A stretch of 64,000 nucleotides of DNA from Desulfobulbaceae bacterium. Its GTDB lineage: Bacteria; Desulfobacterota; Desulfobulbia; Desulfobulbales; SURF-16. Every line of letters begins with the position of its first letter. The stretch's first letter is position 1. Below are positions 1 through 44,771 of the stretch, piece after piece. The stretch spans positions 4,321-68,320 of the forward strand of contig JAQIBE010000103.1 of the NCBI GenBank assembly GCA_027859235.1, in the 5' to 3' direction. Both the position numbers and the translations under genes were made by a program. The notes under the pieces are model-generated. The model made no database searches. It was given only the letters and a program-made list of their open reading frames with translations, and had not been told where the DNA came from.

Positions 1-1283
1 TTGATGATACTTGGATATATGATGATATAGGCACACCAACGTACCAAGATACTGAAAACAGTATTCTTTACCTGCTCAATCAGGATGATGATGAAGATAT
101 GTGTGAAAGTATTGCTAAGTTTATTAGTGATTCATCTGATTTGAACCGAGATAGTTTTAGCCTAATTCACAGGATTCTTCGGCATAAATTTGATACTTTT
201 GAAGAAATACACAATTTACTAGATAAGAAAAATATAAAATCATTACCAGAGAAAATTGAAATATATGAGGATGTTTCTCTTTATGACAATAACAGTGTGA
301 CAGAAAAACTTGGAATCGATGAAGAGAGCCCACTTAATCACAACTCAGAAGATGATCAATCCTCATTACATGAAAATCATTCCTCAAAAGAGGGTGATAC
401 TCAAAGCGACACTAACACTTCGAGTGGAAAGCAAAGGGAGGCTCAAGCAGGTGTAGAAATTCCTCCACCCATAAAGCCTAAAAAATCAAATCCCTCTAAT
501 AAGGAGGATGATGCTAGTTCGCGTGGAGATCATAATCGGCATGGTCACAATGCGAATCAAAGGAGTCAGAAAGGAGGTGGCACTAATAGATCTGGTGAAG
601 CAAAATCATCCGTAAGCAACATCAGTAAGTTGAATTCAAACGCTAATAGTAAAATAGTTAGTTCTAATGACAGAAAGCCCGTTTATGTAGGTAAAGATAA
701 AGAAGTTGACCCTAATGAACAGCGGGAACAAAAAGAGCGTGCTACTGAAATTGGTAATAGAGGTGAGGATTACGTTTTAGAAAGCTCAACAAACTATCTT
801 CTTTATAAATCAAATAAATTTAAAAAGGCTCCAACAAACAACAAAGGGTACGATATTCTAGAAATAGATTCAAACGGAGATATAGTACGTTACATTGAAG
901 TCAAAACTTTGACAGGAGGGTGGGGAGAAGGAGGTGTTGCTGTCACCGAATCTCAATTGGAGTTTGCTCAGGGATATGACAATTGGTGGTTATTTGTTGT
1001 TGAAAATATAAACACACAAAATACCACTGTGCATATATTTGAGAACCCTGTGCAACAAGCTAACCGTTTTATGTTTGATCATAGCTGGAAACAACTTGCT
1101 GAGACTGCCAAAAAGAATCAGTCAGTAGCACCAAAAGAAGGGGATAAATATCGACTATCGGACGGTATATATGAAGTTAGTAGCATTAAACCTAAGGGGA
1201 AGTTCTATAAATTGATACTTAAAGAAACTCAAACAGGTAAAGAAGTTGCAAAAAAGTTTGATCCTTCTTGGGAGAAATGTTGA
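1..1283 (+). CDS. 3' part of a larger protein, open to the left window edge. A long Ser/Asn/Asp-rich low-complexity linker is followed by a DUF3883-like PD-(D/E)xK nuclease-fold domain and a short C-terminal beta-rich tail.
   Basis: Frame 3 is open from nt 3 with no stop, so the ATG at 99 is probably internal. The block EIGNRGEDYVLE...KGYDILEIDSNGDIVRYIEVKT...TESQLEFA...WWLFVV matches the DUF3883 restriction-endonuclease-like pattern (E..D..EVK) as I remember it. Confidence 0.7.
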   Translation, partial: DDTWIYDDIGTPTYQDTENSILYLLNQDDDEDMCESIAKFISDSSDLNRDSFSLIHRILRHKFDTFEEIHNLLDKKNIKSLPEKIEIYEDVSLYDNNSVTEKLGIDEESPLNHNSEDDQSSLHENHSSKEGDTQSDTNTSSGKQREAQAGVEIPPPIKPKKSNPSNKEDDASSRGDHNRHGHNANQRSQKGGGTNRSGEAKSSVSNISKLNSNANSKIVSSNDRKPVYVGKDKEVDPNEQREQKERATEIGNRGEDYVLESSTNYLLYKSNKFKKAPTNNKGYDILEIDSNGDIVRYIEVKTLTGGWGEGGVAVTESQLEFAQGYDNWWLFVVENINTQNTTVHIFENPVQQANRFMFDHSWKQLAETAKKNQSVAPKEGDKYRLSDGIYEVSSIKPKGKFYKLILKETQTGKEVAKKFDPSWEKC

Positions 1284-2977
1284 TGGTTAATATTATTCCA
1301 GTATTGTCTGTGGAGCAGATTGAAGAGATACCTTCAAGAGCTGAGCAGAAGGTATATAAAGCACTGGTTGAACAATTACCTAATGACTGCTTGGTTGTTC
1401 ACTCTCTTGAATTTATAAAACAAACGTCTAGGTTCAAAAGTCATGGAGATAGAGAAGCTGATTTTGTAATTTTTTCACCACGCTTTGGTGTTTTGGTTGT
1501 TGAGGTCAAAGGTGGTGGTATTAGTTATGATAATTCAATTAATCAGTGGTATTCGATTGATCGAAACAAGGATAAACATGAAATAAAAAATCCCGTTCGG
1601 CAAGCTAAAGATGCGAAATACGAAATAAGAAGCCATCTTCAGCAAAGACTAGGCAATAAAAAACTACTGCTTGCTCATGCCGTAATGTTTCCTGATATTG
1701 AAAATGCAGCTCCTTTGGTTAGCCCTAATATGCCAATTAACATAATAGGGGTTAATAGAAACCTTATTGATTTAAAAAAGTGGGTTACAGAGATTTTTGA
1801 TTACTGGGCAGGCGAACAACCCGTTCATGATGCTCTAGGTGAAAATGGGATCAAGGTTGCTGAACAAATCTACGGGAAGCAGGTTTCCATACGCCCTTCT
1901 TTACGCTCTGCAATAGAGAAAGAAGTTCAAAAACAAATTGAGTTAACTAATCAACAAAAAAATATCCTTCGGCAATTAAAAAGAAGAAAAGAGGCTGTGG
2001 TTGAAGGTGGAGCAGGTACGGGTAAAACAGTTCTGGCTCTAGACCAAGCTCAAACACTAGCAGATCAAGGGCTAAATGTTCTATTTCTTTGTTATAACCA
2101 AAGGCTGGGTAATGCACTCAAGATAAAATCACGGCATATTGACAACTTACACTCTATGGGCTTTCATGAGTTTTGTTCTTGGAGAATCAGACAAGTAGAA
2201 AGTAATACAGAACGTAATTTAATAGAAGAATCTAGGAACATCTACCCTGGAGACGATTTATATGATGTATTGATGCCTGATGCTTTGATTAATAGTTACG
2301 AATTAGCTCCTATTCAATACGATGTAATTTTAATTGATGAGGGACAAGATTTTAAACCTGAGTACTGGTTGGCTATTGAAATGTTGCGAGATCAACATGA
2401 AGATACAAAGCTCTATATCTTTCAGGATAGCAATCAGGCGATTTATACCAATAGTAACGATCTTCCAATTGATTGTGAGCCTTTATTTTTGTTTGATAAT
2501 TGTCGTAACACCAAATACATCCATAATTCTGCCTACCAGTATTACAAAGGAACTGAAGTATATGCTCCAGATTTAGAAGGAGAACCTGTTCGGCTTATAG
2601 AAAAATCTTCCCTGGGACTACAAGCAAAAGAAATTGATAATAAGATATCAAGGTTAATCAATACCGAAATTATAGACCCAGAGGATATTGCTATTGTCGT
2701 AATGGGGCAGTTTCATGAGGCGCAACTACTTTTGGAAAATACAAAAAATAGTCATTTGTGGGCTTTTAAAGAGTTCTCTCCAGTTTCTAAGGTATTAGTA
2801 GAAACGGAAAAAAGGTTTAAAGGATTAGAATCAAAAATTATTTTTCTTTGGATAATTGATGAAGAAGCTATAAATGATAAATTACTCTATGTTTCTATAT
2901 CCCGTGCTCGATTTAGATTGTGGGTAATAGGAACCACACCAATTATTCAAAGAACAAATCTAATGAAATTCACATAA
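1277..2977 (+). CDS. NERD-domain nuclease fused to an SF1 (UvrD/AAA_19-like) helicase
   Basis: N-terminal NERD pattern: EQKVYKAL...HGDREADFVIFSPRFGVLVVEVKGG. Walker A is GGAGTGKT and Walker B is VILIDEGQDF. The C-terminal UvrD_C-like motif is LLYVSISRARFRLWVI. The start is ambiguous (TTG 1268, ATG 1277, ATG 1283). ATG 1283 overlaps the upstream TGA as TGATG, with GGAG 8 nt upstream. Confidence 0.8.
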   Translation: MLMVNIIPVLSVEQIEEIPSRAEQKVYKALVEQLPNDCLVVHSLEFIKQTSRFKSHGDREADFVIFSPRFGVLVVEVKGGGISYDNSINQWYSIDRNKDKHEIKNPVRQAKDAKYEIRSHLQQRLGNKKLLLAHAVMFPDIENAAPLVSPNMPINIIGVNRNLIDLKKWVTEIFDYWAGEQPVHDALGENGIKVAEQIYGKQVSIRPSLRSAIEKEVQKQIELTNQQKNILRQLKRRKEAVVEGGAGTGKTVLALDQAQTLADQGLNVLFLCYNQRLGNALKIKSRHIDNLHSMGFHEFCSWRIRQVESNTERNLIEESRNIYPGDDLYDVLMPDALINSYELAPIQYDVILIDEGQDFKPEYWLAIEMLRDQHEDTKLYIFQDSNQAIYTNSNDLPIDCEPLFLFDNCRNTKYIHNSAYQYYKGTEVYAPDLEGEPVRLIEKSSLGLQAKEIDNKISRLINTEIIDPEDIAIVVMGQFHEAQLLLENTKNSHLWAFKEFSPVSKVLVETEKRFKGLESKIIFLWIIDEEAINDKLLYVSISRARFRLWVIGTTPIIQRTNLMKFT

Positions 2978-3016
2978 TCGGGTAGCCGGAGGTTTTTCTC
3001 CCCCCATCCCCTAACA

Positions 3017-3040
3017 CCCTGCATGCGGCTCCGCACAGGG
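3017..3040 (+). terminator. GC-rich hairpin downstream of the helicase gene (possible terminator, weak U-tract)
   Basis: CCCTG-CA-TGCGG-CT-CCGCA-CAGGG, read directly from the sequence. It is followed by cgtttcatc, so there is no strong T-run. Confidence 0.3.
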
Positions 3041-3219
3041 CGTTTCATCAAGATTACCGGGCCGTAGCCGGATTATGTTGACTTGAGATTGCCATATCCA
3101 AGATTTGATTAGATCAAATTCACCTCCGGTTGAGATGTCTACTGTACATGTATTACGTATATAGAGAGCAACTCCCATGTTTAGTATAGCCCTTTTGACT
3201 GAATACAACAGTGTGAACC

Positions 3220-3257
3220 AATATATTTAAGATAATGTATATTATCTTAAATATATT
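3220..3257. repeat. Perfect 17-bp inverted repeat with a 4-nt spacer in an AT-rich intergenic region
   Basis: AATATATTTAAGATAAT gtat ATTATCTTAAATATATT, read directly. Confidence 0.9.
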
Positions 3258-3360
3258 CGTGTAAATGGTCAGCTTTCTGACTATTTTGATGAGTATGTTG
3301 AGATTTGTGAACGAGCTGACAATAGTGGCGATAATTGTTAGGTATCATTTATTAGGTGTA

Positions 3361-3423
3361 CAGTAGTAACCTCAACCTGGGGTGAGTTGAGAAATCCCTG
3401 AGGTTGGATGTGGCAATGTTAAT
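3361..3423. repeat. Copy 1 of a ~63-bp direct repeat (partner at 9843-9905)
   Basis: cagtagTaaCCtCaacCtGgggtgaGttgagaaatccctgaggttggatgtggcaatgttaat aligns without gaps to 9843-9905. The 3' 37 nt are identical, and the differences cluster in the 5' third. Confidence 0.9.
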
Positions 3424-3464
3424 AGCTAAGAGTAATCGTTAAAAACGATATTCATTGAGCTTTT

Positions 3465-3526
3465 TTGAAGTCTTCAACGCCTATATCACTCTTTTGTATT
3501 GGCGTAGTTGGCTGATTTTGTTGAAG
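3465..3526. repeat. Short attC-like imperfect palindrome directly downstream of the 137-aa gene
   Basis: CTTCAAC (3472-3478) and GTTGAAG (3520-3526) are reverse complements. They enclose an inner ACGCC/GGCGT pair and unpaired stretches. GTTGAAG abuts the stop codon of the minus-strand gene ending at 3529. Confidence 0.4.
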
Positions 3527-3528
3527 TA

Positions 3529-3942
3529 TTAGTAATCATCCAAGTCTGGTCTTGCCTCGTAATAGATAACACTTTCAAAAGTTTCAATAATCACATCTAT
3601 GCTGGGGTAGTCACGAGTATCACCAGAGCCAGACATTGGCTGAATCCATCTATCCATCACCCCCCATGCATCGCTATTATGAAATTCAGATATATATCCT
3701 CTGATCGCCGATATAATGCTAGATGGTGAATCTTCATCGTCTAGATAACAGTATGGAGTCCAACTATCTTTGTTGCCCCATAAAGTACTGGTTATAGATA
3801 CTGCCGAGGGTAGAGAATCGTCATTTTTCCTATCATCTTCCCACTCTTCAAGGAGTGTTTCGAAAACAGTACTGAATTCAGGTAACGGCTTGATAGATTT
3901 CTTTGCTTCAGCGATAGGCTTTTGTGGATCTTGTGATTCCAT
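3529..3942 (-). CDS. Hypothetical small acidic Trp-rich protein (137 aa)
   Basis: ORF with GAGG 7 nt upstream of the ATG. The product is strongly acidic (runs of D/E, ends DLDDY). I recognise no family motif. It lies 162 nt downstream of the Hsp70-like gene on the same strand. Confidence 0.6.
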   Translation of the reverse strand: MESQDPQKPIAEAKKSIKPLPEFSTVFETLLEEWEDDRKNDDSLPSAVSITSTLWGNKDSWTPYCYLDDEDSPSSIISAIRGYISEFHNSDAWGVMDRWIQPMSGSGDTRDYPSIDVIIETFESVIYYEARPDLDDY

Positions 3943-4104
3943 GGCTTGCCTCTATCTAGTTGATGTTCATGGTGTGATCTGAGGGAAGCGCGTAAGAAGG
4001 TATCAATATACTGCCATTGATGATTGCACACGCATAAGAGCACTCAAAATTTATAGTCGACACACTCATTTGATTGGCCACCATCTTTGAATCTGAAAGC
4101 AAAT

Positions 4105-5898
4105 TCAAATTCCTGAAATCGGGTTACGAGCTAAAACAAAACCTCCAGCATAACTACTCATATCTTGAACAATACGTTTTTCATCTATAATATTGGGCAT
4201 GCTTCCGCCAATAGCAACAGCTAGTTGTGGATATACTAAAGCAAGCTCAGGGTCATAATTAAACTCCTCAGGAACCAGAGCCATTTTATCTTTTGGAATA
4301 TTAATTCCGTGGGCAAGAATTACCCCATCTGCAAGCTCTGTCACCATGGGAAGAGTTGCGCCACCTCCTGTTAAAGCAATGGAAATACCATCCTTGCCAT
4401 ATTGCCTAACAACACCTTCTTTCATTGGTTTAAGCACAGCGTCAAACTTTTCTGCCAAATTCTTTTTAAATCGTAAAACCGTTTCATGCTGTAAGAACTC
4501 ATCCCTGTCGACAATGACTCGAGTATCATTAATGAGATTCACAGCACAATCACCATCGCGAAAAAGATCCTCTTTCAATGCTCTTACCTGCATCCTTAAA
4601 TGTTTAACTACATATGGTCGGTCAGGGTCATTATCGCGTATACCTGATTTTTCCATGATCATTTGTTGCAAGGCTGTGTCCAAAACATCTCCAGCTTGAC
4701 GAAGTGACTGATTGCACCCTTCAACAGGAAAGCCATTAAATAAATTCCTTTCCAGATCTTTAACCACAACAAATAAAGCAAGATCAGATGTGCCAGCACC
4801 AACATCAACAACCATAGCCAACCCCCTGAACGGCTCATCTTCTTGGAGTTTCGAACTGGCTACAGCTAATGGTTCTGTAACCCCCTGTGAAACTAAATAA
4901 CTTGGAAGTTCTTCTAGTTTGTCAATTTTGTCCAGAACAGACTTCACATCATAGATGTTTAGTCCGTCTTTCCATTGACCATGAAAAGTATCTGCAACAA
5001 TCTGAGCTTTAATGAGCATCTTTTGAAGTAATTTTTCTCCCCACTCCCGTCTTTCCTGATCCCAAGATGGTAAACCAAAATTACGTACTACATACCTTGA
5101 ACAATCATGAGCTTCCTCAAGCTCAGTACAGGCAAGGTCTGTTAAAAAACCTAAATAAATAATAATAGCATCACCCATTGACAAGGGGACATCCGTAGGA
5201 TTCAAAGAAGCTGACATAGGCTGCTGAAATGGAGTCGATTGCTTGAGACCAAGAATTAATACTTTTTTCAAAGAATCAAAACGCTCTCTGTTATCGAAAG
5301 AATCCGACTGAAGCGAAAGATTGATCGCCTCCTCACCTAGAAAAATATCACCATTATTACTGATCCACAGAGATGATGGGACGGGGTAAATATCCTTGCT
5401 TTCCCCATTTGAAGCCCTATGGCCCAACTTAAGCAACAAATTCTCAACTAATTCACCATCCTCAGCCATAGCAGCAAATGCTTTAGACATTGCCGTACCA
5501 AAATCCAAACACATTGTGATTTCCCTATCTTGGGGAGACTTAAATTCTAATGAAGCAAGATTTAACTTGATTTCAGCTCTTGGTTTTACTTGTGAAACAG
5601 ACTCTGTTTCGATTTTTACTTCTAGCTCAGACTCATCTTTTTCCTCATCACCACCCAGTTCAACTTCAATCTTTGGCTCTTCTTTAGGTTTCGTTTTTTT
5701 ATCAATAGGAGGTGCTGGGGTAATGATTTTTTGGAGATCAGTGGCCTCCGGAGTTGTAAACAACTCTAATGCAACTTGTAATGCCTCAATCTCCATGGCA
5801 GATAAAACACCAGAAAGTGTGCCTTGACCAGTCTCTGAATCTATCACCACACGAGAAAGCAAATTTTTTAACAATAGTTCTGCTATATTCTTATCCAT
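4105..5898 (-). CDS. Hsp70/actin-fold (ASKHA) ATPase: an Hsp70-like nucleotide-binding domain with a unique ~120-aa N-terminal region and no canonical Hsp70 substrate-binding domain
   Basis: Phosphate-1 motif is CLDFGTAMSKA. Phosphate-2 motif is VVDVGAGTSDLALF. Adenosine motif is ALTGGGATLPMV. The N-terminus is a short helical segment followed by a Lys/Glu-rich linker. An AGGGGGG RBS lies in the 14-nt gap after the upstream gene. Confidence 0.85.
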   Translation of the reverse strand: MDKNIAELLLKNLLSRVVIDSETGQGTLSGVLSAMEIEALQVALELFTTPEATDLQKIITPAPPIDKKTKPKEEPKIEVELGGDEEKDESELEVKIETESVSQVKPRAEIKLNLASLEFKSPQDREITMCLDFGTAMSKAFAAMAEDGELVENLLLKLGHRASNGESKDIYPVPSSLWISNNGDIFLGEEAINLSLQSDSFDNRERFDSLKKVLILGLKQSTPFQQPMSASLNPTDVPLSMGDAIIIYLGFLTDLACTELEEAHDCSRYVVRNFGLPSWDQERREWGEKLLQKMLIKAQIVADTFHGQWKDGLNIYDVKSVLDKIDKLEELPSYLVSQGVTEPLAVASSKLQEDEPFRGLAMVVDVGAGTSDLALFVVVKDLERNLFNGFPVEGCNQSLRQAGDVLDTALQQMIMEKSGIRDNDPDRPYVVKHLRMQVRALKEDLFRDGDCAVNLINDTRVIVDRDEFLQHETVLRFKKNLAEKFDAVLKPMKEGVVRQYGKDGISIALTGGGATLPMVTELADGVILAHGINIPKDKMALVPEEFNYDPELALVYPQLAVAIGGSMPNIIDEKRIVQDMSSYAGGFVLARNPISGI

Positions 5899-5912
5899 TG
5901 TCCCCCCTTTGT

Positions 5913-7364
5913 TTACTCTACTTTTTTCACTAAACCCTTTATGATTACAAAAGAAACACCACTATCACGAACTTGCTCCACAACAGGTCGAACAATACAA
6001 ACTTGACGAACCCCATTTCTCTCACCAATTATCTCATGCTCCATGGGGGCATATTCTTCAATATCCCCTGAGGTCCCTCGAACACGAAGATTTTTTCGTT
6101 TTGCCATAACCGCAATAGCATCACAAATTGTCACACCATTTTGCATCAAACGCTGAACACTTTCACCAAGGCGAGGATCGAGCATTTCTATTTCCGGTAA
6201 AATTTGTTGCTTGCCAACACTCTCTAAAGCCTGAAAACGCTGGGCATCAATTAATAATTCAGCCAACTGACAATCATCATTAAGTTGCTGTGATTCACCT
6301 ATGGCAACATCAAGCGGTGCTTCATTTTTCCCTTCCGCTAGCCAATTTTTTACATTATTCGCCACACCTGGCATTTGGGCTAATTTCTTCATTCTCTGGC
6401 GAGCAGTCTTTTTATCACCACAAGCTATAACAAGTTGGCCGGCTAAAGAGTCATCGGTTATGCCTTGTTTGGCAAGTATCAACATGGCTTCAGAAATATC
6501 TTGTACCACCTGTAACAGCGCCTTAGATTGTGGAGCATTTTTAGCCCAGACATTTGTAGGCTGCAGTGACTTAACAACTTTCAACGCAGAATAAGTCGTT
6601 GCTTCTGTGGCTAGGGAGAACCGCAAGCGAACCACTTCATGAATAACACCTGCAACCCCTGCTGTTGTATCTATGAGAGTATCTACTTTTTTAGACACAG
6701 GCACATCTTTAAAAGCAGCCCAACAGAGTGAAGCGAGTTGTTTCCCAGGTTCATCTCCAGGTTCACCTCTTATCTCAGCCATAGCAACTTGTAACCCATC
6801 CATAAGGCGCTTGAGACGTTTTGCTATACTTGTACCAGGATCTTCCGTTTCAGGGATAAAAGAACGAATTACACCCGCTAACTCCATAAGAACTGCAGAT
6901 AGATCTGGCTTCATCATTAACAATGCTTTAAGAAAAGCTACTCGAGACTGCTCTCCAGTCTCTTCATAAACAATAGCATTTGCACAATAATCAACTCCCC
7001 ATTTAGGCTGGACCTGTTCGCAAGCATAGCCCACATAACTGCGGTCGTCAGGTTCTTCCAATAAAAATGGCTCTGGTAATTCTTTGGCTAATGCCACCTG
7101 CAAAGAATCATAAATGGTGGCTCGTAACCGCTTTATGCTTGAAGCAAGACGACCAAGGGTTGCCACAGCGAGGAGACGATCTTTATCCTGGGCAGAGGTG
7201 TCACCAACGGTCTCCAATAAGCCATCAATACCAATCTGAAAACCCTTATCTTTTGAAGCAGCGTGATGTTTTCGGGCCGCAATGAGTTTCCGCAGAGCAT
7301 CATATTTTTCCTGTACCGTGCCCAATGAAAACAAGGTTGTTAATGTTTCCTGTTTATTCTTCAT
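5913..7364 (-). CDS. Hypothetical 483-aa protein, mostly helical by composition, with a short beta-type C-terminal domain. It is the first gene of the Hsp70-like module.
   Basis: Long ORF with a plausible ATG, tightly coupled (14-nt gap) to the Hsp70-like gene. No catalytic motif recognised. The C-terminal ~55 aa resemble the GrpE beta-domain by eye (see findings). Confidence 0.8.
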   Translation of the reverse strand: MKNKQETLTTLFSLGTVQEKYDALRKLIAARKHHAASKDKGFQIGIDGLLETVGDTSAQDKDRLLAVATLGRLASSIKRLRATIYDSLQVALAKELPEPFLLEEPDDRSYVGYACEQVQPKWGVDYCANAIVYEETGEQSRVAFLKALLMMKPDLSAVLMELAGVIRSFIPETEDPGTSIAKRLKRLMDGLQVAMAEIRGEPGDEPGKQLASLCWAAFKDVPVSKKVDTLIDTTAGVAGVIHEVVRLRFSLATEATTYSALKVVKSLQPTNVWAKNAPQSKALLQVVQDISEAMLILAKQGITDDSLAGQLVIACGDKKTARQRMKKLAQMPGVANNVKNWLAEGKNEAPLDVAIGESQQLNDDCQLAELLIDAQRFQALESVGKQQILPEIEMLDPRLGESVQRLMQNGVTICDAIAVMAKRKNLRVRGTSGDIEEYAPMEHEIIGERNGVRQVCIVRPVVEQVRDSGVSFVIIKGLVKKVE

Positions 7365-7524
7365 TGATGTTCAACCATTTATTCAAACAAATTGAGTTAT
7401 TTACCACTCTCGCCAGCCTTGGCGAGACTCTTCGACGATGGCGTGCCAGGATATTTAGGATTTCTAAAGCAATTTCATAATGAGATCTAAAGGGGTGTCA
7501 AAGTCATCCATAAATTTATATCCT

Positions 7525-7559
7525 CAAAGTTGTAATTATACAAACATTGTGAAGATGAA
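7525..7559 (-). promoter_or_regulatory. Candidate promoter region for the 483-aa/Hsp70-like operon
   Basis: On the minus strand there is a TATAAT (7530-7525) and a TTGACA (7559-7554), but with a non-canonical 23-nt spacing. The 10-bp palindrome ATGAATTCAT lies between them. An 8-bp stem hairpin, TCTCGCCA gcct TGGCGAGA, sits in the 5' UTR around 7410-7432. Confidence 0.35.
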
Positions 7560-7654
7560 TTCATGTCAAGAGGCAGAAGTTTTATTAAGTAAAATCTATA
7601 ATAATGATACGGGGTTCCAACCTCAGCGTCTACATTACGGCTCCCCAGCCTGAA

Positions 7655-7900
7655 TCAAATCAAACACCACCCTCGCAAACCCCGCAGCTTCTCCTCAGCC
7701 TCTTCCGGCAGCCCCATCTTCTTGACCTTCTCATACTCGGCCAGCACTGCCTCCTTACTCTCTTCAAGAACCCCTTCCAGACGGCGCAATAGGGTAAAGG
7801 GCAGGATCATCCGGCCATACTGGGACTGTTTAAAATCACCGCGCAATAGGTCGGCAAGAGACCAGATATAGGCGGCGAGGTTGTTGCTTGATTGGGTCAT
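7655..7900 (-). pseudogene. hsdM: N-terminal remnant of a type I restriction-modification methyltransferase (HsdM_N domain only)
   Basis: From the ATG at 7900: [67 protein letters not shown]. This is the conserved HsdM N-terminal pattern. The frame ends after 81 codons, with no methyltransferase catalytic domain anywhere downstream. Confidence 0.7.
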
Positions 7901-7946
7901 GAATCTCTTTTCTTGTATAGGATAAAGGGTAAGGGACAGTGGGCCA

Positions 7947-8948
7947 CTACTCTGCTGGCCAATAGAGCCGGACAAGCGGGATCAGGGCGCGGCCTTCCAG
8001 GTCAAAGTTCTCATAATGAGTGACCACCAGGTTGGCCAGCTCGTCAAGGTCAAGCAGGGTGAGAGGGACATTGGCCCGGTCTGCCTCATACTTGGCATCT
8101 TTGGTAAAGCCGCCTGTGCTGATGTAGAGGGCACGGTCACCTTCTCTGAGGCCACCAAGAAAACTTCTAATATTCTGGGAGCCCATGGCAGATCCTTGTC
8201 GATGTTTGACCTCTGCCTTAATACGGGGTTCTTCCAGGCCTAAGCCATCGGGTGAGGCAAAGACATCCACACCCCGGTCCGGACCTTTAGGTGAAATGCG
8301 GGTACGATACCCCATGCCACGCAGGATGGCGGCGGTCAGCTCCTCCATCTCATCGGCAGAGAGGGCAAGGATCTTGTCCTTGATAAACTCATGGGCCTTG
8401 CCCACCATCTCCTGACGGATCTCGTCCAGAGTGGTCTTTTCATCTTCCAGGCTTTCGTTGCCACTTTCAGGGGATTTCCCACCCTGTAAGGCAGACTGAA
8501 TGTCGGCCCAGACATCTTCGTTAACGGCAAAGAGGGTGAGGGTACTGCCTAAGGAGTTACGAGAGCTGGTTGACAGGTCATCACGTTTGACCCGGCTTTG
8601 CCAATCAACCTCCCTGATATGGGGATAATCTTTGGCAACACCAGGTTTGTATTGGTATTCACTTTTAATGACGCCAACAAGGTATTCACGTTGGCCAGGA
8701 TCGTATGAAATGACGTGGTCGCCGACTTGGACGACAGAACGAAACTTATGAAACATGGCAACAGAGTTGCCGATGGCACCCTTGCGCTCATTGGGGTAGG
8801 TCTGCTTGATGGATTGACGGATTTTCTCAAGTTCGCTGACCTGGCTCATATCCCCCAGCTCTATCCAGCCTACAGCCACATAGCCTTTGGCAAAACTACC
8901 GATAAGTCGTCCACCCTCACCGGCCCGAATCATCCAGACATTTTTCAT
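7947..8948 (-). CDS. mrr: Mrr-family restriction endonuclease (N-terminal DNA-binding-type domain plus C-terminal Mrr_cat PD-(D/E)xK domain)
   Basis: The C-terminal block [60 protein letters not shown] is the classic Mrr catalytic core (D...E-x-K). Confidence 0.8.
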
Positions 8949-9842
8949 TATCGCCTCTCTGTGCCCTTATCAGCATGGCAACGTGTACCATATTTTCACA
9001 TGTAAAAAATAGACCTGGGATCAATCAAATACACAGAAACAACACTTCCGCACATCACAGGCCAATTCCTCACAAAAAAATCCCTTCACATATGAACATA
9101 TTTATCATTGATGTCAAAGGGATATACGTAATAAAGATATGACATGGAGAAGAGCAGCTGCTCGCAAAATAATCACTGAGGGGAGTTTGTCAGGGGCCTG
9201 CAATACGTAGCTTACGTATGACGACATCAGCTATTTCCTACGCATGTGATTTCTGGTGTGTTTTTTTCTTTGTCATAGAGTGTATGAGCTCCCCTTGCCG
9301 CTGGTACGAAACCTCACCATAGCTCAGGAAGGTTGTTAACACTTTTTCATGGCCGAGATTCTGACTCCATGCCTTAAACACTTCAGGGGTATGGCAGACC
9401 TTTTCGCCTAATTACACAAGAATGCCAAAAAGAACTACTAAAGATTTCCACCTCATTAAACCTTGTGGTGGCAAGGGTTGTAGGGGAGCTTGAGGGAAGA
9501 TAGGGCCGCCGCTGTATATGCGGGCCTTGGTTAAAAGCGCAATTGACCGCCCCATAAGGGGAAACGAGCAAAAAGCAAAAAAGGTGGAAGTCGCCCATGG
9601 AAGTCGAAAATATGAGACAAAGCACGAAGAGCCTTTATCACACACCCCCCTAACAGTCGTTATAATACTGTATGTGATCCTATAACACGTGCTGCTGCTG
9701 AGAAAAGAAAGGTTATGTTAAACCTCCCTCATATTAAGCAGAAACAAACTCTATGGGCGACGAGGCAAGGTTGCAGGCAAAATCTAATTTTTTTCCTGAT
9801 TGTCTCTAAATCAGAGCAGATATAGACCAAGCCTGACATTCA

Positions 9843-9905
9843 CAGTAGGAAGGTTAACTTAGGGTGAATTGAGAAATCCCTGAGGTTGGATGTGGCAATG
9901 TTAAT
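9843..9905. repeat. Copy 2 of the ~63-bp direct repeat (partner at 3361-3423)
   Basis: Same alignment as for 3361-3423. This copy is immediately followed by the 178-bp composite repeat. Confidence 0.9.
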
Positions 9906-9909
9906 GTGT

Positions 9910-10087
9910 GAGATAACCGGCTTGCCAACCAGTTGGCTACCAAGTTTAAACGGTTATAATTATTAAAACCCACTCAAGAGAACGCGCGTGCTCGCAAGTC
10001 GGGCTGATTAACTTATTATGTGATTTCAATAAGTTATATTGTTTTTTGGTCAAGCTAGTGTGGAACTTTTCGCACTTCAATGTTGAA
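9910..10087 (-). repeat. 178-bp composite repeat, inverted copy (partner at 11771-11948)
   Basis: The reverse complement aligns end to end with 11771-11948. Three blocks are conserved: TTCAAC-N-TTGAAGTGCGA, ACTTGCGAGCACGCGCGTTCT, and TAACCGTTTRARCTTGGTAGCCAACTGGTTGGCAAGCCGGTTATCTC. The stretches between them are variable. Confidence 0.85.
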
Positions 10088-10150
10088 ACAAAATTGCTCT
10101 AGCCACTTAGTCTGGTGGTTCCTAAAAGTTTTAAAGCTGTATTTTTTATT

Positions 10151-10972
10151 CTAGAGCTTCTTTTCATACTTAAAAACTTTCTCACTCCTTATGTCACTGT
10201 AAGTGTTTCTAATATAATTATCATTTTGTGGAACTGGAATATCCGAAAATTTAAGTGTGAAAAGGTTATCATCTTGGCGACAGTTTTTCCTACTACTGCC
10301 GAACAAACCTTTTTGACTGTAATAATAAAATTCACCTCCATAAAATGAAATTGACTGATTGTAGCTATATTGATCGTTAGCATGAAAACTTATTTCCATT
10401 TGTCCGATTATTGAGTCTGTTTTAATACCTGTTAGCCTAACGCTAATTTTTTTACTTATATATTCACTTGGAATATGAAACCCTTCTTTCCCTTCATTAC
10501 TCTTAATCTTAAAAACTCTAAACATAATAGTATATTCAATTATAGTCCTTATATGATTTCTTAAAGTATGATCATGTTGAGATAAAAAATTAAATTTACT
10601 ATTATATTTACTGGCTTGAGGGAACAAATGAGCTTTGCTGCAATTAAATGTTGACAGTTTAAAACTTTCAATGACTCTATCAGTTGTGGCATCTAAAAAC
10701 TCATTCCATGCTTTAATCTCTTGATCAGATATTGCATGTTTTAGATCTAGTATTTTTTGTTGCTGTATTCTATTTTCGTTTTCTTTTCTCAGTTCTAACT
10801 TTTTTATTTCATTTTCTTTTTCATTTTTGTTGATCCAACTATTGGAAATAGTCATTGTTTTGAAATTAGCAATTATTTTGATATTTTCATTTTTGATTAC
10901 ATCAAAGTTTGTTGATATGTCTTTGCCGTTAATGCTAATAACGCATTGGAGGGTCAGGTCTTGAAAAGCCAT
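10151..10972 (-). CDS. Hypothetical AT-rich orphan protein (274 aa from the ATG at 10972) with a central Lys/Glu/Asn-rich probable coiled coil
   Basis: Long ORF. The ORF-track N-terminal extension (to 11089) reads through repeat sequence and looks non-coding. MAFQDLTLQ is the first credible start. No family recognised. Confidence 0.6.
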   Translation of the reverse strand: MAFQDLTLQCVISINGKDISTNFDVIKNENIKIIANFKTMTISNSWINKNEKENEIKKLELRKENENRIQQQKILDLKHAISDQEIKAWNEFLDATTDRVIESFKLSTFNCSKAHLFPQASKYNSKFNFLSQHDHTLRNHIRTIIEYTIMFRVFKIKSNEGKEGFHIPSEYISKKISVRLTGIKTDSIIGQMEISFHANDQYSYNQSISFYGGEFYYYSQKGLFGSSRKNCRQDDNLFTLKFSDIPVPQNDNYIRNTYSDIRSEKVFKYEKKL

Positions 10973-11138
10973 ATTCTCAAATGGGGAAGGACCTGGGGTC
11001 AGGCTTCCAAGTTGACAAAGTAAGGAAAGAGACAGGCAAAAGAAAAAGTGGGGGTCAGGTCTTGCCCTTTGCACAACAAATAAATGCACCGGGTAAACCG
11101 GTGATTATCGCGTTATGCCCTAAAAATAAAACTTACGC

Positions 11139-11168
11139 TTGCACGCACTATCACCAGTACGGTATAAT
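11139..11168 (+). promoter_or_regulatory. Sigma70-type promoter candidate for the phd/parE pair
   Basis: TTGCAC (11139-11144), an 18-nt spacer, then TATAAT (11163-11168), about 27 nt upstream of the ATG at 11195. Confidence 0.45.
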
Positions 11169-11194
11169 GTACAAAACTCTACACAGGTGATACT

Positions 11195-11476
11195 ATGCAA
11201 AGATTAAGAATCGATCAAGACATTCGATCCATGTCAGAATTTAGAACTGGAATTGCCTCATTTCTCAAACAAGTTCACGACACCAAAAGACCTCTCATCA
11301 TTACCCAACATGGTAAAAGCGCTGCAGTCTTAGTCGACGTTGGTGAATATGAAGCCATGCAGGAAAAAATTGAATTATTAAGCGATATCCATACATCCAT
11401 GAGCCAAATTGAAAACGGCGAGGGAATTAACCATGCGACAGCGAAGGAAATGATCTTAAAGAGAATAGCCAAATGA
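11195..11476 (+). CDS. Type II antitoxin, Phd/YefM family
   Basis: MSEFRTGIASFLKQVHDTKRPLIITQHGKSAAVLVDVGEYEAMQEKIELL is the typical YefM/Phd N-terminal fold sequence. It overlaps the toxin gene by 4 nt (ATGA). Confidence 0.85.
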   Translation: MQRLRIDQDIRSMSEFRTGIASFLKQVHDTKRPLIITQHGKSAAVLVDVGEYEAMQEKIELLSDIHTSMSQIENGEGINHATAKEMILKRIAK

Positions 11477-11769
11477 AAATAATTTGGTCGCCACTAGCTA
11501 TCGATAGAGCAGCAGAAATAGCTGAATACATTTCCCTCGACAATTCCACTGCAGCCAACAAATGGATTGAAAAAATATTTGAAAAAGTCAAAGCCCTATC
11601 AACGTCACCAGAAGTTGGCAGAAAAGTACCAGAAATTAACCGAAAGGAAATTAGAGAATTAATTTTCGGAAATTACCGCATAATTTATAGGCTGGAGACT
11701 GCTAATATTTACATTCTCACTATCCGTCATGGCAAGCAGATATTACCTGTAGATGAAATAATGGTCTAG
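11473..11769 (+). CDS. Type II toxin, ParE/RelE superfamily
   Basis: The pattern IIWSPLAIDRAAEIAEYI...NYRIIYRLETANIYILTIRHGKQ is characteristic of ParE-like toxins. It is coupled to the upstream antitoxin. Confidence 0.85.
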   Translation: MKIIWSPLAIDRAAEIAEYISLDNSTAANKWIEKIFEKVKALSTSPEVGRKVPEINRKEIRELIFGNYRIIYRLETANIYILTIRHGKQILPVDEIMV

Positions 11770-11770
11770 C

Positions 11771-11948
11771 TTCAACTTTGAAGTGCGACAAAATTTAATA
11801 AAAAACCAGGCCACACCAACCTAAGTGCATGAAATTGCATAACAAATCAATCAACCCAACTTGCGAGCACGCGCGTTCTTTTAAGTCAGCTTCAACAATT
11901 TTAACCGTTTGAGCTTGGTAGCCAACTGGTTGGCAAGCCGGTTATCTC
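11771..11948 (+). repeat. 178-bp composite repeat, forward copy (partner at 9910-10087). It contains an attC-like bulged hairpin at 11902-11944.
   Basis: It starts 2 nt after the parE-like stop. In the hairpin, a continuous right arm GTTGGCAAGCCGGTTA pairs with TAACCG-[TTTGA]-GCTT-[GGTA]-GCCAAC, leaving two extrahelical bulges on one arm. Confidence 0.85.
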
Positions 11949-11977
11949 GGCGTTAGCACACAAAAAACCATAACGCC

Positions 11978-12005
11978 TTGCATTATTACCGAGAAGTGTT
12001 ATCAT
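11978..12005 (+). promoter_or_regulatory. Sigma70-type promoter candidate for higBA
   Basis: TTGCAT (11978-11983), a 16-nt spacer, then TATCAT (12000-12005), just upstream of the ATG at 12012. Confidence 0.35.
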
Positions 12006-12011
12006 CTAATT

Positions 12012-12293
12012 ATGATCAAGTCATTCCGGTGTAAAGAGACTCAAAAGATATTCGGCAGGAAATTCTCAAAAAAACTGCCGACAGAAATTCAAGAAACCGC
12101 CAGAATTAAATTGATCATCTTGGATGCGGCAACGTCAATAAACGACTTGAGGGTTCCGCCAGGCAATAGACTTGAAGAATTGAAAGAAAACAGAAAGGGT
12201 CAACATAGCATCAGAATTAACAACCAATGGCGTATCTGTTTTGAATGGAAAAACGGCAACACATTCAATGTAGAAATTGTTGACTATCACTAG
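12012..12293 (+). CDS. higB: Type II toxin HigB (RelE/ParE superfamily, plasmid-maintenance killer type)
   Basis: MIKSFRCKETQKIF...INDLRVPPGNRLEELKENRKGQHSIRINNQWRICFEW is the canonical HigB sequence pattern. The toxin-first gene order is typical of higBA. Confidence 0.85.
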   Translation: MIKSFRCKETQKIFGRKFSKKLPTEIQETARIKLIILDAATSINDLRVPPGNRLEELKENRKGQHSIRINNQWRICFEWKNGNTFNVEIVDYH

Positions 12294-12312
12294 AACGAAT
12301 GAGGTAAAAAAA

Positions 12313-12615
12313 ATGGAAACAAAATCACTACCTCCCATACATCCTGGCAAGATACTGCTCGAAGAATTCTTAGAGCCAATGGGTATCACACAATATCGCT
12401 TAGCCAAGGATACATCTGTGCCCCCAAGAAGAATAAATGAAATTGTTCATCAAAAACGTGCTATTACGGCAGATACAGCATTACGTTTAGGAGTTTTCTT
12501 CAACATGTCTCCTCACTTCTGGATGAACCTTCAAAGCAGATATGAACTGGAAAAAGCAGAAGATCAGCTTGAAGACAAGTTAATGAACGAAGTCCACCAA
12601 TACAAAACTGCATAA
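12313..12615 (+). CDS. higA: HigA antitoxin (XRE-type HTH)
   Basis: PIHPGKILLEEFLEPMGITQYRLAKDTSVPPRRINEIVHQKRAITADTALRLGVFF is the HigA/VapI HTH pattern. I prefer the ATG at 12313 (GAGG RBS) over the ORF-track start at 12277. Confidence 0.85.
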   Translation: METKSLPPIHPGKILLEEFLEPMGITQYRLAKDTSVPPRRINEIVHQKRAITADTALRLGVFFNMSPHFWMNLQSRYELEKAEDQLEDKLMNEVHQYKTA

Positions 12616-12632
12616 AACCAAATAAAATCAAA

Positions 12633-12700
12633 AGCTTCGTTCAACAATTCGCTCAAGCACGACGCGTGAGCACGCTAGTTTTAACGGCTTCGGCCAACTT
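12633..12700 (+). repeat. Degenerate, truncated third copy of the composite repeat at the island/backbone junction
   Basis: It shares AGCTTC-GTTCAACAATT, TTTTAACGG and GCCAACT with 11886-11925. It lacks the right arm (TGGTTGGCAAGCCGGTTATC) and carries a GC-rich hairpin insert, GCTCAAGCACGACGCGTGAGC. Confidence 0.5.
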
Positions 12701-12751
12701 ATTACAACCCGAACTTACTCAACCCCTGCTAGGCGCGCGTCTGCATGGCCC

Positions 12752-13522
12752 CTACTCAAGATGAATAAAGAGATCACCACGGGGGACCGCATTTTGCTGA
12801 TGCCCCTTTTGTCTGATGCGAAGGATTTTGCCGGAGGATGAGTGGGGCGGAATTTTGACACGAATTGTCTCTCCCTGCAAGCCTGTCATGACCTGAACCC
12901 ATGTGCCGTCAAAGAGCTCCTGCGGACTTAAGCTAATATGATAATGGAGATCGCCATTCGTCTGTTCGGGTTGCGGAGTAGACGAACCCTTCTGCGAACC
13001 GGAGAGCAGTGAGGCTACCCCCCGGGTGATGTTTTTTACCACGGGGTGGCCAACAAGCTGAGCCAGACCTGCTTTCGACGTTATTTTCCGACCTGCCATG
13101 GAACCGAAAATAGCAAGCCCGCCGAGGAGCAGTCCCTTCCCGCCAAACAGCGTCTGCTTAAAAAACTTCGCGTCAGCCCGCACGCCGCCCCGTTGAAAAT
13201 CCTGAAGGATCGTCTGAAAGAGTTGCTTGAAACGCGGGTCATTGAAGAGATCCCGCAAAATATCATCCTGGGAATACTGGAAGCCCCCGTTGGTCTTTGA
13301 CTGGCGAAACCCGGTGGATTTATAGCGGTCATACTCCCGTTTTTTCACCGGGTCGGTCAACACCCCATACGCCTCGGCAAGGTCCTTAAACTTTGCCTCC
13401 GCCGCAGGATTATCGGGATTGAGATCGGGATGATAGGCCATGGCACGTTTGCGGTACTGTTTCTTGATCTCCGCATCCGTTGCCCCTTTCTCCACCCCCA
13501 GGATCTGATAATAATCCTTCAC
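12752..13522 (-). CDS. J-domain protein (DnaJ/CbpA-like) with a Gly-rich hydrophobic middle segment and a short DnaJ-C-like tail
   Basis: The N-terminal sequence DYYQILGVEKGATDAEIKKQYRKRAMAYHPDLNPDNPAAEAKFKDLAEAYGVLTDPVKKREYD is a J domain with an HPD motif. The start overlaps the cobS stop by 4 nt. Confidence 0.85.
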   Translation of the reverse strand: MKDYYQILGVEKGATDAEIKKQYRKRAMAYHPDLNPDNPAAEAKFKDLAEAYGVLTDPVKKREYDRYKSTGFRQSKTNGGFQYSQDDILRDLFNDPRFKQLFQTILQDFQRGGVRADAKFFKQTLFGGKGLLLGGLAIFGSMAGRKITSKAGLAQLVGHPVVKNITRGVASLLSGSQKGSSTPQPEQTNGDLHYHISLSPQELFDGTWVQVMTGLQGETIRVKIPPHSSSGKILRIRQKGHQQNAVPRGDLFIHLE

Positions 13523-44695: not shown

Positions 44696-44771
44696 TGGTG
44701 GAGCTAAGCGGGATCGAACCGCTGACCTCCTGTCTGCCAGACAGGCGCTCTCCCAGCTGAGCTATAGCCCC
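44696..44771 (-). tRNA. tRNA-Ala (anticodon GGC) with encoded CCA
   Basis: The reverse complement is GGGGCTATAGCTCAGCTGGGAGAGCGCCTGTCTGGCAGACAGGAGGTCAGCGGTTCGATCCCGCTTAGCTCCACCA. It folds as a cloverleaf with a G3:U70 pair, anticodon loop CTGGCAG and T-loop GGTTCGATCC. Confidence 0.95.

Follow-up and report, generated by a model that had tools for sequence, protein, structure and literature searches.

A probable integrase-less cassette cluster and its attC family in Desulfobulbaceae

The subject of this work is a pair of inverted repeats in a 64,000-nt stretch of DNA from a Desulfobulbaceae bacterium (assembly GCA_027859235.1, contig JAQIBE010000103.1, positions 4,321 to 68,320), to which we refer as a whole as the window. 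The left repeat lies directly 3' of a minus-strand open reading frame (ORF), called here the orphan gene, and the right repeat directly 3' of the plus-strand toxin-antitoxin pair phd-parE; both copies have the same orientation relative to their own gene unit. We consider it very probable that the two repeats are integron attC sites and that they belong to a small, decayed cassette cluster without an integrase.

Layout of the locus

The features are listed below with the scores of two covariance models defined further on, R1 built from copies of the repeat family and R2 from attC sites of class 1 integrons. Brackets within a sequence mark unpaired bases.

9905-10941, minus strand: inverted orphan cassette, consisting of the gene and attC_L
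9897-10023, minus strand: attC_L, attC of the orphan cassette; R'' ACATAAT 10015-10021, spacer 10009-10014, L'' ATCAGCCCGACTTGC 9994-10008, L' GCAAGCCGGTTAT 9913-9925, spacer 9906-9912, R' ATTAACA 9899-9905; R1 139 bits; R2 24.1 bits, E 3.7e-4
10024-10087, minus strand: left copy of the optional 5' extension, TTCAACATTGAAGTGCGA...CTTGACC...TTGAAAT; outside the attC fold; 58% identical to the right-hand extension
10151-10972, minus strand: orphan gene, 273 aa from the ATG at 10972; GC 0.30
10937-10942, minus strand: GTTATT core (CAATGCG|TTATT), proposed 5' boundary of the inverted orphan cassette
11069-11120, plus strand: mini attC; R'' GCACAAC 11071-11077, spacer, hairpin AT[G]CACCGG/CCGGTGAT 11084-11105, spacer, R' GTTATGC 11112-11118; R1 21.3 bits, E 0.005; R2 17.3 bits, E 0.032
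11113-11952, plus strand: extent of the phd-parE cassette
11163-11168, plus strand: the cassette's own -10 element, TATAAT, as read from the sequence
11195-11476, plus strand: phd (PF02604; TIGR01552)
11473-11769, plus strand: parE/relE-type toxin (PF05016; TIGR02385)
11771-11834, plus strand: right copy of the optional 5' extension, TTCAACTTTGAAGTGCGAC...CAGGCC...CTAAGTGCATGAAAT
11835-11959, plus strand: attC_R, attC of the phd-parE cassette; R'' GCATAAC 11837-11843, spacer 11844-11849, L'' ATCAACCCAACTTGC 11850-11864, 68-nt variable terminal structure, L' GCAAGCCGGTTAT 11933-11945, spacer 11946-11951, R' GTTAGCA 11952-11958; R1 134 bits; R2 31.9 bits, E 2.2e-6, the best match in the window
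12012-12293, plus strand: higB-like toxin (PF05015)
12277-12615, plus strand: higA antitoxin (PF01381; TIGR02607, 110 bits)
12637-12742, plus strand: truncated attC of a divergent subfamily; R'' GTTCAAC 12639-12645; R1 18 bits, E 0.037
12752-13522, minus strand: DnaJ-like core gene

The repeats, which a first-pass annotation had delimited as 9910-10087 and 11771-11948, each 3' of a gene unit, are real: minus and plus strand pair without gaps over 178 nt, with 134/178 identical positions (75%), and a repeat search of the window returns them as inverted arms 9910-10041/11817-11948 (132 nt, 83%) together with a second arm pair, 10067-10087/11771-11791. Identity amounts to 58% in the 5' 66 nt and 86% in the remaining 112 nt, i.e. 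the 3' two thirds, with unbroken identity over runs of 21 nt and 35 nt, and the 32-mer and 20-mer blocks occur only in these two places of the window, where shuffles expect 0. In the family alignment conservation continues for ~10 nt past the 3' edge of the 178-nt unit, to C-G-T-T, where it stops abruptly, and the first ~65 nt of the unit are optional, most family copies being without them. We have therefore redrawn the functional unit as an attC of ~127 nt, which begins with xxxxAAC and ends with GTTxxxx. The earlier doubt about a unit that exceeds the typical attC length concerns only the optional extension; the attC itself is of usual length.

The cassette boundaries are visible in this layout. 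On the plus strand the order is mini attC, phd-parE, attC_R, higB-higA, truncated attC and core genome; the start of the phd-parE cassette is marked by the mini attC at T11113, with the phd promoter just downstream, and higB-higA (12012-12615) is a second toxin-antitoxin cassette. The 52-nt mini attC resembles a divergent subfamily minus its centre, and its bottom strand folds into an R box, an internal loop and a bulged L stem (z -2.2). The truncated attC is nearly identical to a site of a related locus (L001:2089-2212) up to GCGCGCGTCT, after which L001 runs on to GCGTTAG; the window copy breaks off within L' and has neither the following spacer nor R', and the similarity stops 10 nt short of the stop codon of the DnaJ-like gene.

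On the minus strand the orphan gene and attC_L would constitute an oppositely oriented cassette that begins at the G|TTATT core. The core of attC_L is mutated (AAC>AAT and GTT>ATT), and the two triplets still pair; it is the sole copy of 35 with T at position 7 of R'' and A at position 1 of R'. Since AAT/ATT replaces AAC/GTT at the cleavage triplet, attC_L is probably inactive, although the pairing is preserved. The orphan gene appears in public records as a 312-aa product with a GTG start at 11089; the protein has no Pfam or NCBIfam match, and its sole match among 5.8 billion proteins is itself, a hypothetical protein of a Desulfobulbaceae metagenome-assembled genome (MAG).

The attC family in related loci

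Exact-pattern scans retrieved the repeat from 7 genome loci and 18 metagenome loci. The former are labelled as Desulfobulbaceae, Desulfurivibrionaceae, Desulfobulbus and Deltaproteobacteria MAGs, and contigs of one Sulfurovum-labelled MAG are also among them. The family is one of Desulfobulbales-type MAGs and sediment metagenomes; scans of viral contigs with two family patterns gave no matches. The covariance model R1, constructed from 21 close family copies and with no mobile-integron sequence inside, finds many further divergent copies in these loci, on one strand only within each contig: five sites in L001 (in 3.9 kb), five in L007, four each in L023 and L026, and three in L024. Successive family sites are separated by 453-3645 nt, and 27/37 sites follow a same-strand ORF of at least 50 aa that ends at most 250 nt upstream, often less than 20 nt. 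The sites thus stand in the context of an array.

Pairwise identity among copies is 0.89-0.94 at CGTT and falls, mostly to 0.25-0.45, immediately after. The family cores are RYMYAAC and GTTRKRY, with AAC in 34/35 copies and GTT in 34/35. Full sites measure 125-128 nt, within the attC range of ~57-141 bp, and the mini site 52 nt. Subfamilies share the boxes but can have unrelated central sequences; even so, the terminal structure is always 65-69 nt long (67-69 with a single exception). An invariant near-palindrome, GAGCACGCGCGTTCTC, occupies the centre in the main subfamily.

Fold and covariation

In top-strand order a site consists of R'' (e.g. GCATAAC), a 6-nt spacer, L'' AT[C]AACCCG[A]CTTGC with its two bracketed bases unpaired, a centre of 67-69 nt, L' GCAAGCCGGTTAT, a spacer of 6-7 nt, and R' (e.g. 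GTTAGCA). The bulges occupy fixed columns six positions apart, one being always A and the other C or G. The first-pass annotation had paired the continuous arm with the adjacent TAACCG..GCTT arm; covariation and the loss of the latter arm from many copies place its conserved partner, with two single-base bulges, at the distal ATCAACCCGACTTGC instead. The GTTATCT box named there fits GTTRRRY poorly because it belongs to L'; the true R' (GTTAGCA 11952-11958; on the left ATTAACA 9899-9905) lies just outside the 178-nt repeats.

The alignment of 35 copies was fitted to the model, and its counts therefore lean towards the structure: 86% of cells are paired, vs 20-39% in controls with the 3' partners slid 1-3 columns out of register, 12/20 pairs show compensatory changes, and 56 cells are changed on both sides vs 20.8 in shuffles, none of 500 shuffles reaching 56. 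The L helix is 92.5% paired and 7/13 of its pairs covary, e.g. AAC/GTT to CAC/GTG or AAG/CTT, and CTTGC/GCAAG to CTGGC/GCCAG. In divergent copies the minimum free energy (MFE) structure of the bottom strand has the attC shape (L007:865, z -5.1; also L026:4337 and the mini site). As the slid controls and these independent MFE folds agree, we regard the structural signal as real.

Reciprocal covariance-model searches

The test set comprised three clinical class 1 integrons with intI1 from a plasmid collection, carrying the cassettes aac(6')-Ib-cr/arr-3/dfrA27/aadA16, aac(6')-29, and dfrA12/gcuF/aadA2. The top 8 matches of R1 in these integrons are the 8 expected attC positions, all on the cassette strand, with E-values of 1.7e-7 to 0.63; the 60 kb searched yielded no further match below E=8. 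The second model, R2, was built from those 8 class 1 attC sites and run on the window with filters off (128 kb searched). Its top two matches are 11835-11960(+), E 2.2e-6, and 9897-10023(-), E 3.7e-4, i.e. the two repeats; the mini attC at 11069-11120(+) comes third (E 0.032), and the next match has E 0.75. Rfam, at gathering as well as permissive thresholds, gave nothing at the repeats. A generic scan for AAC...GTT with paired arms missed the true sites, matched random positions of the core genome and was discarded. The proposal of attC-like sites 3' of oppositely oriented cassettes, with toxin-antitoxin cassettes as in chromosomal integrons, is thus supported by the family context, the covariation and the reciprocal models.

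Status as an integrase-less cluster

No complete integron, i.e. intI and attI beside an array, was found in the 64-kb window or in loci L001-L032. An integrase-less attC cluster (CALIN) is defined by two or more attC sites that share a strand and lie within 4 kb of each other, without a nearby intI. The plus-strand sites 11069-11120, 11835-11959 and 12637-12742, with gaps of 766 and 802 nt, form one, two of the three sites being weak or partial: the mini site (E 0.005 with R1, 0.032 with R2) and the truncated third. Such clusters are common (PMC4889954).

Discussion

Several observations weigh against the interpretation of the repeats as attC sites. The occurrence of attC sites on opposite strands is atypical of a simple array and is seen in none of the related loci, so the reservation already expressed in the first-pass annotation stands. 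The absence of intI from the window, also stated there, was borne out by tblastn with IntI1, and the same query revealed no IntI among loci L001-L032, where its sole match was in L020. The L020 protein, the only recombinase adjoining a family site, is Xer-like and stands beside an IS91-family transposase. One core position departs from the textbook RYYYAAC/GTTRRRY (M/K instead of Y/R); that position covaries. The alignment of R2 was fitted to the structure of R1, so that the two models are not fully independent. Finally, the two window copies have unremarkable folding energies (z 0.0 and -0.15), and their MFE folds, computed for DNA, favour a short bulged hairpin. This is the hairpin originally described, TAACCG..GCTT..GCCAAC / GTTGGC AAGC CGGTTA, in which the same 3' arm pairs with the proximal TAACCG..GCTT arm. 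Both window copies have it in their MFE structures, and in the main subfamily it is paired just as well as the distal alternative (86%); it is, however, not the conserved fold, as L005, L015, L027 and most divergent copies have lost the proximal arm and retain the distal pairing. We read the short hairpin as a subfamily-specific alternative fold within the variable terminal structure.

The L020 recombinase was considered as a candidate IntI and rejected: it is Xer-like and frameshifted, scores 87 bits vs the TIGR02249 cut-off of 265, has a gap of ~62 residues between the KDR and HxLRH motifs vs ~105 in IntI1, and lacks the IntI-specific insertion. It is nonetheless conceivable, if very unlikely, that the attC-like hairpins serve a recombinase or transposase other than IntI, for instance the Xer-like tyrosine recombinase and the IS91-family rolling-circle transposase of L020/L025, their likeness to attC being convergent or ancestral. 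The failure to find IntI would fit this idea, as would the position of the L020 genes ~130 nt from a family site and the sharing of this junction by L025; yet such a neighbour occurs in only 2 of ~20 independent loci, the recombinase gene is frameshifted, and the junction looks like an insertion of an insertion sequence (IS) next to R''. Insertion sequences and group II introns target attC sites. Moreover, the R and L boxes, the bulge positions and the spacings are those of class 1 attC sites, i.e. the features that IntI reads.

The frameshifted Xer-like recombinase gene and the IS91-family transposase gene occupy L020:1-1829, directly upstream of a family attC, and this arrangement, also present in L025 and L029, recalls ISCR1 beside class 1 integrons. 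L025 shares with L020 the junction CCGCGTAGCGGCTTCGTyCAAC, which abuts R''.

The first-pass annotation had named a generic dispersed repeat as the outcome that would speak against integrons. We find it highly improbable that the units are a repetitive extragenic palindromic (REP) or miniature inverted-repeat transposable element (MITE), or the terminal inverted repeats of a 2-kb transposon-like unit, unrelated to integrons. The two inverted copies do bracket a 2.0-kb segment, with their best-conserved ends outward, and some family copies have IS elements as neighbours (IS91-family in L020, IS30-like in L007). However, in all other loci the copies are direct, on the same strand, at cassette-like spacing and after ORFs; there is no target-site duplication at 9897/11959; the similarity ends at G|TT instead of a fixed-flank transposon terminus; and the family profile picks out genuine attC sites specifically, and vice versa. 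That the units act mainly as RNA or transcription elements (stabilisers of 3' untranslated regions, or terminators) with the short bulged hairpin as the functional part is scarcely credible, since in spite of the position of each copy immediately downstream of an ORF and in its direction of transcription, and of the hairpin's presence in both window MFE folds and its pairing in the main subfamily, there is no T-tract after the hairpin, a terminator scan finds nothing at either repeat, there is no Rfam match, and it is the distal pairing that covaries, the proximal arm being lost in L005, L015, L027 and most divergent copies.

We return to the interpretation of the repeats as attC sites. When an integron is active, its attC sites fold on the bottom strand into imperfect hairpins, each with an R box (xxxxAAC/GTTxxxx), a spacer that stays unpaired, an L stem that carries two extrahelical bases, and a terminus whose sequence varies; IntI cuts R' between G and TT and exchanges one strand, whereby a gene is excised or inserted together with its attC. 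Because no integrase was found, recombination of the present sites by IntI is something that we infer. The window would then contain a small integrase-less cassette cluster on the border of a low-GC defence island. The cluster appears to be a decayed remnant, since one of its attC sites has been cut short where it meets the core gene and the core of attC_L is mutated. The two self-promoted toxin-antitoxin cassettes would presumably help to prevent its loss.

Comparison with known integron systems

In common with described CALIN (Cury et al. 2016, PMC4889954), the sites are imperfect palindromes of the type R''/L''/L'/R' with spacers, two extrahelical bases and a variable terminus; they lie 3' of ORFs and cluster on one strand at distances below 4 kb, no integrase is nearby, the cassette genes are mostly unknown, and an attC covariance model detects the sites. 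Unlike CALIN, one of the four window sites is on the opposite strand and has AAT/ATT, another is truncated at a core gene, and about a quarter of the family members carry an extra 5' module of ~65 nt.

Vibrio cholerae repeats (VCRs), the attC sites of a sedentary chromosomal integron, are about 123-126 bp long. The present sites resemble them in their length (~127 nt), high similarity within the lineage and near-constant terminal length. The sequence of the family is unrelated to VCRs except at the ends, and it differs from VCR systems in its Desulfobulbaceae host, in short arrays on fragmentary contigs, and in that no platform (intI, attI and the promoter Pc) was recovered. The window also shares with sedentary chromosomal integrons, of which this is typical, toxin-antitoxin cassettes with their own promoters (PMC13108822), and conservation of attC sites within taxa has been described (Ghaly et al. 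2021, PMC8352920).

With the class 1 attC sites of aadA2, aadA16, gcuF, dfrA12, aac(6')-Ib-cr, arr-3, dfrA27 and aac(6')-29 the family aligns one to one in box order, bulges and R-to-L spacing, AAC-AATTCG-TT[C]AAGCCG[A]C of class 1 corresponding to AAC-AAATCA-AT[C]AACCCG[A]C of the family. The aadA attC is GTCTAAC AATTC GTT[C]AAGCCG[A]CGCC...GGCTTAAC TCAAGC GTTAGAT, and the bulge identities as well as the six-position spacing between bulges match it (10.1101/620195). Unlike in class 1, the terminal structure has 68 nt vs a few nt in the 60-nt aadA-type sites, the core is GTTRKRY vs GTTRRRY, and the cassettes are not resistance genes.

The optional 5' extension

The extension, present in ~10 copies, consists of YCTAGCTTCAACTTTGAAGTGCGAC, an A-rich stretch and CTAAGTRCnTGAAAT, and contains a 14-nt palindrome. 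Its first block is also found where no family attC follows (L002:455-473, L004:2400-2418, L007:3653-3671). It has no Rfam match, and scans for promoters and terminators found no more sites than in shuffles. Two candidate functions were set aside: a promoter (TTGACC-17-TAGAAw) fits only a few copies, and the supply of a stop codon for the upstream ORF holds for parE and not generally.

In L007:3653-4700 an IS30-like transposase gene (frameshifted, 269 aa + 71 aa) lies between the extension block and the attC, and downstream of this gene is GTCGCACTT, the inverted complement of AAGTGCGAC of the extension block.

The junction between the divergent cassettes

A locus from another sample (L014, 3300051638) matches the window only from 10937 rightwards; to the left its sequence is different (L014:1-82), and its junction carries a tandem 13-nt duplication (AATAACGCATTGA AATAACGCATTGG). 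Among the contigs of sample 3300051639, L013 starts at 10937 and L009 ends at 10991. As contigs diverge or break at the core that bounds the orphan cassette on its 5' side, these data suggest cassette-level variation in the population at this point, where a structural variant separates strains.

It is tempting, though quite unlikely to be correct, to view the 170-nt segment between the outward cores (10942 on the minus strand and 11112 on the plus strand) as a bidirectional integration platform, or as the pivot of an inversion that an integrase drives between the two inverted attC sites, with the extension as an accessory module. If this were true, cassettes could be stacked or flipped both ways from one point, and the strain break at 10937 would be its trace.

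Three direct repeats GGGTCAGGYYT (10951-10961, 10996-11006 and 11052-11062) lie between the divergent cassettes and overlap the start of the orphan ORF; the motif is nowhere else in the window or in any locus. The IntI-binding repeats of attI1 have a GTTA-type core. We considered GGGTCAGGYYT as attI repeats of this kind and set the idea aside, as the motif lacks such a core and is found nowhere else; the repeats may be operator sites.

Other features of the window

The region 1-13000 has a low GC content (0.30-0.46 vs ~0.5 elsewhere) and bears defence-type genes (SACS/NOV_C, NERD-helicase, Mrr and an HsdM fragment). At 7655-8948 the Mrr-type restriction gene adjoins the 81-aa N-terminal fragment of HsdM, which together look like the remnant of a type I restriction-modification system in the low-GC island.

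A weak attC-like site with perfectly complementary CTTCAAC/GTTGAAG ends (3470-3528, minus strand; R1 9.7 bits, E 5.6; no R2 support) is located just after a 137-aa ORF. A 64-nt direct repeat, 3360-3423 / 9842-9905 (89% identical), brackets a 6.5-kb segment with the genes for 137-aa, Hsp70-like 597-aa and 483-aa proteins, the HsdM_N fragment and Mrr; its right copy starts exactly at the attC_L crossover (A|TTAACATTGCC...), and two Logan contigs span exactly 9898 to about 3420. The repeat could mark a site-specific insertion or duplication.

Two Joint Genome Institute contigs end less than ~90 nt upstream of the 1814-aa SACS/NOV_C gene (44 nt in the case of L033). L033, which lies just left of the window, begins with CAGGTTGTAC, resembling an R' core (GTTGTAC), and the assembly may have broken in another attC copy there. 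The only Rfam gathering-level match of the window is a tRNA gene at 44699-44771 (minus strand).

Conclusions

The element described here is of a known kind, an attC family with a CALIN, in a lineage and with an attC family for which no description was found: a full-text literature search returned no paper describing integrons in Desulfobulbaceae or relatives. The inverted cassette with its mutated core and the optional extension are minor oddities, and the understanding of integrons is unchanged by the finding. The window seems to illustrate the decay of an array, in which the integrase has been lost or is distant, one attC has been truncated, one cassette has been inverted and mutated, and the toxin-antitoxin cassettes have been kept. 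A homogeneous VCR-like attC family and cassette arrays thus exist in Desulfobulbaceae and relatives, sulfur-cycling bacteria of sediments, and the R1 model can be used to mine their cassette pool, which consists mostly of genes without known relatives.

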